A stretch of 64,000 bases of DNA from a virus (Duplodnaviria; Heunggongvirae; Uroviricota; Caudoviricetes). Positions within the stretch are counted from its first letter, which is position 1; each line of letters begins with the position of its first letter. A program made the position numbers and the translations under genes. Below, piece by piece: positions 9,149 through 18,080 of the stretch. The notes beneath the pieces were generated by a model, which had not been told where the DNA came from, did not search any database, and saw nothing but the letters and a program-made list of their open reading frames with translations. The stretch spans positions 176,437 to 240,436 of IMG/VR virus record IMGVR_UViG_3300031414_000001; one strand, given 5' to 3'.

Positions 9149-9598
9149 TTATTGTAGTACTTTAAGTTTATATAAGATGCTCTCAACAAAACTCATTATA
9201 TCTTCGAGTGTGTTTACAGAGCCAAATTCGCCAAGTCCATCCAAAATTTCATGTATCTTAATACAGTGCTGTACGTATTCTTCCAGTAGAGGAATTGCTT
9301 CTTCTAAAGGTTGAAAAACATAAGTACTGCCAGTACTGAAAATTGGGCCACGTTCAGCCATCATACCTTCTATGAAAGTATCCACATATTCTGGCAACCC
9401 TTTATAGAATTCATCCAGTTCAATGTGTTTAGAATAGAACTTGCACTGTAAGTGCCAGTGGTGTGCTTGGGATTCAAGAAATAGACTATTCTCTACGAAT
9501 TTAATCAGAATATCATCGTGAGTGTCGTCAGAAGTTTCTACGTAATCAATCATACTGCGTATGTCGTTAGGATCAAAATGTTCGCTCATAGGTATCAT
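9149..9598 (-). CDS. ferritin/Dps-like four-helix protein (DUF5856-like)
   Basis: QAHHWHL...HIELDEFY...DTFIEG pattern resembles the Dps ferroxidase centre (H-x-x-H, H-x3-DE-x-Y, D-x3-E). Confidence 0.6.
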   Translation of the reverse strand: MIPMSEHFDPNDIRSMIDYVETSDDTHDDILIKFVENSLFLESQAHHWHLQCKFYSKHIELDEFYKGLPEYVDTFIEGMMAERGPIFSTGSTYVFQPLEEAIPLLEEYVQHCIKIHEILDGLGEFGSVNTLEDIMSFVESILYKLKVLQ

Positions 9599-9622
9599 CC
9601 CTTCAGGTTATTGATACTGTAT

Positions 9623-9988
9623 TTAGCAGTGAAAAATAAACTTAGGGTTGTAGTAGTCACAAACTTTTTTGACTTTCTCATATTCCATTGCTCCAAAAAC
9701 AAAAAGAAATTCACACGGAACCTCAGACAAATACATGGTATTAGTACTGATGAAGTGTAAATTATCTGTCTTGTGAACAGGGAAATGAGGATCAAAATTT
9801 AAACAGATAACGCAATTATCTTCAAGAGCAATTTCTTTCATTGCTTCATAGATTCCTAATGCTTTGTCATCATTTAAACTTGGTAGGTATATTCGATTCT
9901 GTCTTGTTAGATAAGAACCGTACTCAATTAAAATTAGAAAATATCTCAACATAATACTGTTGAAATATTCATTGTCTGCTAGTTCCAT
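9623..9988 (-). CDS. hypothetical protein
   Basis: 121-aa ORF with AGGAG-like SD. Confidence 0.6.
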   Translation of the reverse strand: MELADNEYFNSIMLRYFLILIEYGSYLTRQNRIYLPSLNDDKALGIYEAMKEIALEDNCVICLNFDPHFPVHKTDNLHFISTNTMYLSEVPCEFLFVFGAMEYEKVKKVCDYYNPKFIFHC

Positions 9989-10134
9989 TGCCTAACTCCG
10001 TTAGTCAAGAATTTTCGTTAGTACTCACGTTGTTCGTACTTAACTCAATTCCTATAAACTATTTAATACGTTTAACACTGTTTATACTGACGGGGTTTGT
10101 TGATCTATTTGCATCCCCCCACAAAAGGGGAACG

Positions 10135-10160
10135 AAAAAAAAGTCAGAACTAAGCTGACG
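10135..10160 (-). terminator. intrinsic terminator candidate
   Basis: GTCAG-cttagtt-CTGAC followed by 8 U on the minus strand. Confidence 0.6.
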
Positions 10161-10605
10161 GTGGTAGTCTTACCATCTGAATTTGTAGATTTCACTCAAA
10201 TTTTGGACGGATCTATATTGTCTAAAATTTGTAGTAAACACTGGCGGGTTGTCCGGTTTCCAGTTACTACAGTCGCATACAACGGTCGGAGTTTTCTCAT
10301 TGCTCCGCATATAGTACTTGCTAATTCAGCAACAGGTACTATTGATATTCCGTAGAATATCTCCCTTTTAACAGGTGAGTATGCCTCTAATGCCTATCTA
10401 GTGCGTTCATGTCAAGGACGCATTTAAAGTGCCGCATTGCCGTGGGTGGTACAAACTATGCCAACTCCTAACGGGTAAAATATATTGCACTCGTACTGAT
10501 TGAACTACTCAACTGCTGTTTACTTTTCAACGAGATCAGGTTCAAACTATTCCATTTCTGGATCAATCAGAGTTTTAAAACTATGAAGACCTTTTTAGGA
10601 TCTTC
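10135..10605. ncRNA. candidate large structured non-coding RNA or structured DNA element
   Basis: ORF-free region of at least 8 hairpins, between a minus-strand promoter (10612-10640) and a minus-strand terminator (10135-10160). Strand is ambiguous; see findings. Confidence 0.55.
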
Positions 10606-10611
10606 ATGTAC

Positions 10612-10640
10612 ATTATACCAGAACTTTTCGTTCTGTTCCA
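10612..10640 (-). promoter_or_regulatory. promoter TGGAAC-N17-TATAAT with extended -10
   Basis: TGGAAC agaacgaaaagttctgg TATAAT. Confidence 0.65.
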
Positions 10641-10647
10641 TTTATTT

Positions 10648-10911
10648 TCAATCTTTGTAAAAATTATCGTTGTACGATTGTGTCTTTACTAGATATTCTG
10701 GATCGATGTTTTCAGGCTTGATATTGTCGTTCAGGAACTTAATTGCCTTTTCTTCAGTACTGAATATTAATCGTTCATTAGTACCTTTAGCACATAAGAA
10801 ACGACTATGATCATAATCATATTCGTCAAAGTCTTGCATACAACAAACCGTAATAATATCATCATTATCACCTATCCGAATTAGGCGATAGTATACATCA
10901 TTGTCATCCAT
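10648..10911 (-). CDS. hypothetical protein
   Basis: 87-aa ORF with GAGGA SD. Confidence 0.65.
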   Translation of the reverse strand: MDDNDVYYRLIRIGDNDDIITVCCMQDFDEYDYDHSRFLCAKGTNERLIFSTEEKAIKFLNDNIKPENIDPEYLVKTQSYNDNFYKD

Positions 10912-10921
10912 TATTTAATCC

Positions 10922-11308
10922 TCACATATATAGTCGTTTTAAATCATTTGGTGAACGATCAAAGAACTTTTCGATGAAATCAATGTCTTCAAAGATGGAT
11001 GGTTCAAGATCATGTTCATAGTACGCACGTTTGCTGTACTTTTCAGTACCGTTGTACGCAATCTTAATCGGAAGTACTGTTTGTCCTTCGTCATTCAATG
11101 TATACGTACAGGCTAATTTAATATATTTCTTTTCATTTTCGAGATTATTCTTATGAAAAGCAAGTTCTAGACCTTCTAAATGACTATAAGAATCTTCTTC
11201 CTTAACCATGTTGATTGTAATGGTTACATGCTTCTCATAACCTAAATCGGTGATGTTTTTAGTACAAGCGGTAACTTCCAGGTTATCAAAGTTAATATCT
11301 TTCAGCAT
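10922..11308 (-). CDS. hypothetical protein
   Basis: Start moved to ATG 11308 (GGAG SD) because the ORF-track ATG at 11353 lies inside the -10 box of the promoter. Confidence 0.6.
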   Translation of the reverse strand: MLKDINFDNLEVTACTKNITDLGYEKHVTITINMVKEEDSYSHLEGLELAFHKNNLENEKKYIKLACTYTLNDEGQTVLPIKIAYNGTEKYSKRAYYEHDLEPSIFEDIDFIEKFFDRSPNDLKRLYM

Positions 11309-17287: not shown

Positions 17288-17778
17288 TAGCGAAACTCCG
17301 ACAAAATATCCATACGCTTTTCTTCGATCTCACGTTCTTTCAGAAGACGTTTCTGATGTTCCTGAGCACGAATCAAGCAACCAAATGCTACAATGAAAGC
17401 ATGATGATCAGTACCTTCAAAGATAACCACATTGTTAGACATTACATTTTTATGATACACAATAAAGTGATTTCCAGTATTGTTATCAATTAAAGTAGGA
17501 TGCCCGTACTGAGATACGTTATTTCCACTTTTCTCATTTTCATTTTCAATAGTACTGGTGAACGCTTGAATAGTCGCATTCGAAGACGAGAAACGATCAA
17601 TCTCAGTTGCCATAACACGAATCATGTTACGCAGAGTTGGCTGTAGTTTGGAATACTGATATTTCATATGTATAACAAACTTACGGTCATCATCAGTCTT
17701 AACGTCTTCTTTCAGGACGTTATTACTTTTACGAAGGATTGCGAATAGCAAATCAGATTTTTTCATTTGAACCCTCAT
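17287..17778 (-). CDS. hypothetical protein, LRK-motif family
   Basis: AILRKSNNVLKE...FVIHMKYQYS. Confidence 0.65.
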   Translation of the reverse strand: MRVQMKKSDLLFAILRKSNNVLKEDVKTDDDRKFVIHMKYQYSKLQPTLRNMIRVMATEIDRFSSSNATIQAFTSTIENENEKSGNNVSQYGHPTLIDNNTGNHFIVYHKNVMSNNVVIFEGTDHHAFIVAFGCLIRAQEHQKRLLKEREIEEKRMDILSEFR

Positions 17779-18080
17779 TCTTCATTAAGCATTTCAACTA
17801 TCGTATTGAAAACTTCAATTATCACATCTCCGTGGCATTCCAGCGGAGCACAAGAACAACCAATGCGTAGCCCACTAAGGCTCAAAACGTCATCGGTTGT
17901 TATTGTACCATTCTCCAGGCATTCGTACAAGTACTCTCGGTACATTTGTATAGAAACTTGGCGAGAAATTCCCGCTCCTGGGTCTAGGGGAAACGGATTT
18001 CCCCATATTGTACCACGCCCGATGTAAATGTCAAACTCGCCTTTGTGACGATTGACAAGGACAGGGGTAACGTATTCCAT
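17775..18080 (-). CDS. DUF4326 family protein
   Basis: DIYIGRGTIWGNPF...LRIGCSCAPLECHGDVI. Confidence 0.85.
   Translation of the reverse strand: MEYVTPVLVNRHKGEFDIYIGRGTIWGNPFPLDPGAGISRQVSIQMYREYLYECLENGTITTDDVLSLSGLRIGCSCAPLECHGDVIIEVFNTIVEMLNEE

Follow-up and report, generated by a model that had tools for sequence, protein, structure and literature searches.

Few large RNAs combine several pseudoknots with an invariant core, and those with a solved function are usually ribozymes or central scaffolds of ribonucleoprotein particles (RNPs). GOLLD and ROOL (RF01998, RF03087) and OLE are orphan large "ornate" RNAs that are often borne by phages or prophages. RNA-primed replication origins of the cis-acting kind are exemplified by the ColE1 RNA II pre-primer and by the phage T4 transcripts of oriF (uvsY) and oriG (gene 34); the T4 origin transcripts start at middle promoters. 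In PA5oct, a distantly related (Rak2-related) jumbo phage, RNA-seq has defined four ORF-free non-coding RNAs of 236-619 nt, ncRNA001-004 (PMC7318152).

The locus described here lies in a stretch of 64,000 nucleotides, hereafter the window, taken from a phage record of 370,971 bp (~371 kb). Like GOLLD, ROOL and OLE, its element is an orphan RNA, about 0.5 kb long, multi-helical and pseudoknotted, with invariant loops and variable peripheral hairpins. It differs from them in having no sequence or structure match in Rfam 15 even to E 10, in occurring as five diverged, evenly dispersed paralogs per genome within one jumbo-phage clade plus rare islands, and in not lying beside tRNA genes in the window. 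With the PA5oct RNAs it shares the character of a transcribed ORF-free region in a Rak2-related jumbo phage; the profile built from 43 copies of the element (nhmmer) matched neither ncRNA002 nor ncRNA004 of PA5oct, and both of these lack the invariant blocks. A non-early-class phage promoter, a non-coding transcript and several dispersed sites are features common to the element and the T4 origins, although T4 origin transcripts, unlike the element, are not conserved folded RNAs. ColE1 RNA II is also a folded RNA of ~0.5 kb, and the G-rich run of the element could stabilise an RNA-DNA hybrid as in that system; an antisense regulator comparable to RNA I was not found for the element.

Positions 10135-10640 of the window probably constitute a self-contained minus-strand gene for a structured non-coding RNA of about 470 nt, belonging to a multicopy family. 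Jumbo phages of the RaK2/GAP32/121Q-like kind have five ancient paralogs in each genome, and the interval is one of these. It lies in a 659-bp gap (9989-10647) that separates the minus-strand ORFs 9623-9988 and 10648-10911. A preliminary description of this DNA, made from the window sequence, had seen no credible ORF in the interval, and the homologs bear this out: the longest ORF in the RNA sense has a median length of 36 aa among 43 homologs, and there is neither a conserved reading frame nor 3-periodicity in the 43-copy alignment (column entropy by position mod 3 of 0.86/0.89/0.83). A protein-coding gene or pseudogene is thereby ruled out. The corresponding gap is also empty in the hand-curated records of GAP32, CBB, BF, Munch, 121Q and EJP2.

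Searching of the whole window against Rfam 15 gave no match at gathering score, and only chance-level similarities for 9800-10900 (E 0.55 to 7.9, searched to E 10), which is consistent with the unannotated RNA that had been proposed. ARAGORN found no tRNA or tmRNA gene in the window. Likenesses of short motifs to rRNA, tmRNA, RNase P, hammerhead and group I RNAs were dropped, as no Rfam match accompanies them. A group I or group II intron was also rejected, given that there is no Rfam match, that the flanking ORFs are complete and differ at each of the five copies, and that no split frame is seen. The RNA was not found in the literature: the paper on phage CBB gives the promoter motif discussed below and not the RNA (PMC5259590), and the paper on phAPEC6 has no transcriptome.

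Within the genome of the phage itself, a profile search identified five full-length copies, at 20.9, 105.3, 186.4 (the window copy), 250.9 and 311.1 kb, all in one orientation and separated by gaps of 60-84 kb. Ten related phages carry two to five copies each at syntenic places. Distinct copies recovered by nhmmer, with E-values of 1e-75 to 1e-184 against all copies, number five each in GAP32, CBB and BF, four each in fHe-Yen9-03, EJP2, Hallingskeid and 121Q, three each in Munch and G17, and two in XaC1. The window copy is a C-type paralog. Over the element it has 98% identity to Erwinia phage Kaldavass, 97% to Xanthomonas phage XbC2, 89% to Cronobacter phage GAP32 and Pectobacterium phage CBB, and 83-85% to Serratia phage BF and Yersinia phages fHe-Yen9-03/04, with coliphages of the 121Q/PBECO4 group as more distant relatives. 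The homolog set used throughout comprises 43 distinct copies, which are on average 60% identical in pairwise comparison, and the invariant blocks and 65 covarying pairs described below are common to the window copy and to those of GAP32, CBB, 121Q and the other relatives.

Copies group by position and not by genome, thus indicating that the paralogs are older than these genera. Four of the five sit among minus-strand genes. Copy B is flanked by plus-strand genes (in 121Q, those of endonuclease VII and of a small protein encoded next after the baseplate hub) and has kept the common orientation, so that the element is independent of the transcription of its neighbours. The genes downstream differ at every copy. 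A 23-base two-block pattern had three matches in GTDB genomes, all of them chance matches inside ORFs of high-GC MAGs, and there was no profile match; in IMG/VR and metagenome contigs the same pattern was found only in jumbo-phage contigs or short fragments. From these strict pattern scans and the E. coli search reported below, the distribution of the family is one jumbo-phage clade plus rare enterobacterial islands. The five-copy character, two pseudoknots and conservation past the terminator to ~10087 are additions to the preliminary description. The coordinates of the features are collected in Table 1.

Table 1. Features of the element and of its surroundings, in window coordinates
Feature	Position	Strand	Basis
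Promoter: -35-like TGGAAC at 10640..10635, 17-nt spacer	10612..10640	minus	sequence
Small hairpin AGAAC/GTTCT within the 17-nt promoter spacer		minus	
Extended -10, TGGTATAAT	10620..10612	minus	
5' hairpin at or just past the inferred transcription start (~10605), then AGUUUUAAAA	10583..10607	minus	sequence, alignment
5' domain of the RNA	10364..10582	minus	RNAalifold, 43 copies
5' domain, helices	10565-10570/10496-10501, 10559-10562/10551-10554, 10529-10539/10513-10520, 10487-10491/10428-10432, 10467-10474/10440-10445, 10417-10422/10402-10407, 10385-10387/10377-10379		
5' domain, nearly invariant single-stranded blocks GAAACCCGUUAG, CACGGCAAUGCGGC, GAUAGACAUAUAAGG, UAAGGGAG			
3' domain of the RNA	10168..10369	minus	per-pair counts, 43 copies
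3' domain, UACG-capped hairpin	~10344-10361	minus	
3' domain, hairpin	10336-10342/10311-10317		
3' domain, helix	10303-10307/10287-10291		
3' domain, helix nested in outer stem ~10265-10270/10231-10236	10260-10264/10240-10244		
Optional side hairpin: stem GAC, 11-nt conserved loop AAUAUAGAUCC, stem GUC	10201..10227	minus	alignment A2
Intrinsic terminator: GUCAG-7 nt-CUGAC (10159..10143), then U8	10135..10159	minus	terminator scan, grouped alignment
Two direct CGUCAG boxes (plus-strand CTGACGG)	10155-10161 and 10087-10093		
Conserved downstream segment	10087..10134	minus	alignment
GC-rich hairpin, RNA sense CGUUCCCC-UUUUGU-GGGGGGAUG, with conserved G6 run	10134..10111	minus	
AT-rich spacer with small covarying hairpin and ribosome-binding site	9989..10086	minus	sequence, alignment
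TTGAC(T/A) word adjoining the CTAAC-TC-GTTAG hairpin	10004-10009	minus	
Small covarying hairpin inside the AT-rich spacer, plus-strand CTAAC-TC-GTTAG	9992-10003		
Ribosome-binding site GGAG of ORF 9623-9988	9997-10000	minus	

The promoter that had been described as TGGAAC-N17-TATAAT is confirmed, and the motif TGrrAC-N15-TGnTATAAT is present directly upstream of 43/43 copies on the minus strand. The word TG[AG][AG]A[CT]-N15-TGnTATAAT has 36 sites in the 371-kb genome, every one of them on the minus strand (36/36; 0-1 sites in shuffles), and a site other than that of the element occurs in the window at 1733-1761 (record position 178170). It matches the "divergent RpoD-like promoter" (-35 TGAAACG) reported for CBB and GAP32, of which 11 of the 18 sites precede a gene block with many DNA-synthesis genes (PMC5259590). 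The promoter word may mark a middle-type transcription class that has an activator.

For analysis of the fold, the 43 copies were aligned in the minus sense in two halves, A1 for the 5' half and A2 for the 3' half. RNAalifold gave 38 pairs in the 5' half, 31 of which have double-sided changes. Five helices were tested in the 3' half, three of them nested and two pseudoknots, and 22 of their 27 pairs have double-sided changes. The 65 pairs are formed in 94.4% and 95.3% of cells, against 30-46% when the partner is slid by 1-3 columns and at most 74% in column shuffles. Double-sided changes affect 53 of the 65 pairs and 659 cells (346 + 313), against no more than 125 + 119 in shuffles. The covariation among homologs that the preliminary description had named as a check is thus well above that of both kinds of control.

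The RNA has a two-domain fold in which no fewer than 12 covarying helices, together with a pair of firm pseudoknots, surround nearly invariant single-stranded blocks. Pseudoknot 1 joins the loop 10323-10329 of hairpin 10311-10342 to the 3' tail 10177-10183 by 7 bp. Every one of the seven is Watson-Crick in 43/43 copies, and a single position can show as many as four pair types. Pseudoknot 2 (5 bp) is formed by 10279-10283 with the loop 10248-10252, and covaries at three of its five positions. There is moderate support for a candidate third pseudoknot of 3 bp in the 5' domain, where AUGC would pair with GCAU/ACAU. The local stems that had been listed from the window sequence fared unequally. 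ACTGG/CCAGT, CGGAG/CTCCG, ATAGTAC/GTACTAT, TGCGTC/(G)ACGCA, CTGATT/AATCAG and the outer GTAG/CTAC covary across the 43 homologs. GATAT/ATATC covaries in our own alignment, but it is scrambled in the tool alignment A2 and so was left out of the 65 pairs. GTGCC/GGTAC and GGTGGTA/TACCATC are not supported as local hairpins, the former belonging to the invariant core and the latter being limited to this lineage.

Around this core are hairpins that vary among paralogs. The GAC/AAUAUAGAUCC/GUC hairpin has one fixed mismatch in its lower stem and is found at one of two alternative insertion points, depending on the paralog. It is present at both in the 121Q and G17 copies L065/L066, and a further example is L004:1221-1438. 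From its sequence and placement, this hairpin behaves like a portable binding or docking motif. The 5' hairpin is also optional and paralog-dependent, and is terminator-like in D-type copies: several paralogs (D-type, for example L002:1433-1700) have a strong hairpin followed by a U-run directly past the inferred start, which others do not have. Going by its sequence, such a hairpin and U-run would terminate or attenuate the RNA's own transcription.

The strand of the RNA deserves particular attention, since the preliminary description reported conflicting signals, with wobble pairs on the plus strand and promoter and terminator pointing minus. Over the 65 covarying pairs, a minus-sense reading gives 133 G.U against 41 A.C, and a plus-sense reading the reverse. 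The hairpin 10344-10361 is capped by C(UACG)G in the minus sense only, and neither the alignment nor the terminator scan contains a conserved plus-strand promoter or terminator. Folding energies are less discriminating. Single-sequence z-scores are weak for both strands (means of -1.0 and -1.6 over the 43 copies) and prefer the minus strand in 29 of the 43, and RNAalifold of the whole element on the raw MAFFT alignment does not separate the strands (-130 vs -141 kcal/mol). The window copy taken alone does fold better on the plus strand (z of -5.15 vs -2.56 on the minus), but the conflict disappears at the level of the family. On the plus strand there are one invariant G-T (43/43) and one common T-G (35/43) beside covarying helices. 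The G-T "wobble" of TTTTGGAC/GTCTAAAA (stem 10201-10227) is a U.C mismatch in at least one other copy (L005), and is therefore weak evidence for the plus strand in the window copy. The wobbles, the UNCG loop, the promoter and the terminator together indicate one minus-strand RNA, and the sense/antisense pair and the structured single-stranded DNA element that had been suggested are not supported. With its start placed from the position of the -10 box, this RNA would run from ~10605 to ~10137, a length of ~470 nt.

Public sequencing runs could be consulted as assembled contigs, which carry no strand and no true RNA ends. In two metatranscriptomes from separate studies, one of freshwater (X8) and one of wastewater (X13), all contigs on 9300-11300 fall within 10259-10580, with zero cover of the flanking genes (flanking 1.7 kb). 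The X8 contigs match the window with 95% identity or more (99% or more for one of them), and X13 also has contigs whose loose ends match other paralogs. As DNA contamination would cover the flanks equally, RNA of the element is over-represented. Two other runs, X1 and X6, are probably DNA; they cover the flanks too and were therefore set aside as expression evidence. Positions 10137-10258, part of the predicted RNA, have zero cover in both X8 and X13, and three contigs, from both studies, end at 10259/10260, the 5' arm/loop junction of helix 10260-10264/10240-10244. The RNA may be processed or cleave itself at this point, or the shared end may have arisen in assembly. The RNA must in any case reach at least 10177, beyond this contig end, because the 7-bp pseudoknot needs the tail 10177-10183. 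Covariation, the RNA's own promoter and terminator, element-restricted cover in RNA libraries and absence of an Rfam match thus all favour the reading as an unannotated large phage non-coding RNA with which the preliminary description had begun.

The hairpin and U8 of the minus-strand terminator at 10135-10160, also noted at the outset, were recovered by the terminator scan as a hairpin at 10159..10143 followed by T8. A terminator is found in A-, B- and C-type paralogs, the A- and B-types having their own, different stems at the matching place, and D- and E-type paralogs are without one. Conservation does not stop there, as ~75 bp past the terminator are conserved in all paralogs, to ~10087. 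The pairing of the GC-rich hairpin in this segment is retained in D-type copies through minus-sense G.U. The CGUCAG boxes flank the terminator and the GC-rich hairpin, and read CTGACGG on the plus strand here and CTGACGA in most copies. In 121Q-like copies both boxes show a joint G-to-A change, a sequence pattern which suggests that they contact the same partner. Given the lack of a terminator in between, the RNA of D- and E-type paralogs probably includes the downstream segment; for the window copy, only transcripts that pass the terminator would contain the segment. Where the mature RNA ends is accordingly uncertain. Beyond the segment, 9989..10086 is probably general intergenic furniture outside the RNA.

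Outside phages, the 121Q-type copies match a single locus in two of 5,426 complete E. coli genomes; the window C-type copy, used as query, has no match in the same 5,426. In E. coli LR-29-1 the RNA copy is located in a ~10-kb island between ybaA and ffs (NZ_AP027515.1 about 3,473,213-3,483,557; L074:8238-18582), together with an IS3-disrupted tyrosine integrase, a resolvase, a DuOB-DUF488-mSLOG/DUF4326 trio and four proteins without family. The island copy is full length, has its own promoter and is closest to B-type paralogs (74-83% identity). It retains 62 of the 65 pairs, although it departs from the nearest phage copy by many compensatory differences, and so is under the same structural selection. 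The proteins beside it have no Pfam family and no homolog in the phage, apart from the unrelated mSLOG/DUF4326 protein. A homolog of the latter is encoded in the window by the minus-strand ORF 17775-18080 (38% identity over 90 aa), and others are found on further RNA-bearing jumbo-phage contigs (L099, L105). Among the jumbo-phage contigs and fragments that the two-block pattern matched in IMG/VR and metagenomes, there are no homologs of the island integrase or neighbouring proteins. The DuOB-DUF488-mSLOG/DUF4326 trio is typical of conflict systems, and the LR-29-1 island may target jumbo phages, either as a defence island or as a satellite.

As to how the RNA acts, we tentatively favour, from sequence and comparative data, a trans-acting scaffold or decoy RNP, while regarding this specific mode of action as somewhat doubtful. 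The RNA would be released as a stable, abundant, trans-acting molecule at the time of DNA-synthesis gene expression; a partner, either protein or nucleic acid, would be bound by its invariant loops, giving a scaffold or decoy RNP, and the paralog-specific peripheral hairpins would tune or diversify its role. A bacterial island with a structurally intact copy could then exploit or counteract the same interaction. A released trans-acting RNA is the reading that best fits the promoter-to-terminator unit, the invariant core framed by covarying helices and pseudoknots, the paralog-variable peripheral hairpins, the over-representation in RNA libraries and the retention in a chromosomal island.

What is unexpected for a purely trans-acting RNA is the even spacing of its genes: five points placed at random on a circle of this size would leave no gap shorter than 60 kb with a probability of only 0.0012. 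Such spacing would be natural if the copies were cis-acting, RNA-primed replication origins of the ColE1 RNA II or T4 oriF/oriG type, the main rival reading, which we judge unlikely. Some transcripts would pass the terminator, form an R-loop at the G6 run and AT-rich stretch and prime the leading strand; five evenly spaced origins would shorten the replication of a 371-kb genome, and islands bearing a copy would replicate on phage infection. The promoter class of the element, which in CBB is mostly upstream of DNA-synthesis genes, and the T4-like replisome of these phages both speak for such an origin (PMC5259590). So do the conservation past the terminator, where an AT-rich stretch accompanies a G6 run that is invariant on the RNA-like strand, and the retention of a copy by an integrase-bearing island. 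However, the copies are syntenic and their layout is inherited in all relatives, so that the even spacing counts as a single evolutionary observation. GC and AT skew track gene orientation, and the cumulative GC skew has no switch at the copies. R-loop origins of the T4 type need no elaborate RNA fold, and heavy covariation, invariant loops and a terminator in three of the five paralogs suit a released RNA better. A version that gives the fold a part to play, in which five RNAs organise five RNA-primed origins, the fold deciding between release and use as an R-loop primer as in ColE1 RNA II, with islands amplifying with or sensing the phage, is by the same analogy distinctly unlikely.

That the element is a long structured 5' leader or attenuator for downstream minus-strand genes (here ORF 9623-9988), acting by regulated read-through of the terminator, is more improbable than either origin reading. 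Four of the five copies, like that of the E. coli island, do have co-directional genes after them, no strong separate promoter was seen for ORF 9623-9988, and some copies have a terminator-like hairpin directly past the start. Against this, the downstream genes vary among copies, convergent genes come after copy B, a conserved fold of 470 nt with a double pseudoknot far exceeds known leaders, and the RNA-library contigs fall on the element and none on the downstream ORF. A functional plus strand, a sense/antisense pair or a single-stranded DNA structure is the least probable reading, for the better plus-strand fold of the window copy, the two conserved plus-strand wobbles and a sharp left contig end at 10259/10260 that would suit a plus-strand 5' end are set against the minus-strand bias of wobbles and of single-sequence folds in the family and the lack of conserved plus-strand signals, and an RNA from 10260 would miss one arm of four covarying helices.

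The family described here is an RNA for which no published description was found, preceded by a promoter motif that had already been described for CBB and GAP32 (PMC5259590). As it is carried by E. coli phages such as 121Q and phAPEC6, it is experimentally accessible. If the element proved to be an origin, its copies would provide the first replication map for RaK2-like jumbo phages. The keeping of five diverged copies across several giant-phage genera, in combination with the capture of an intact copy by a bacterial island, makes it very likely that the RNA has its role in a core step of infection or of the conflict between phage and host.
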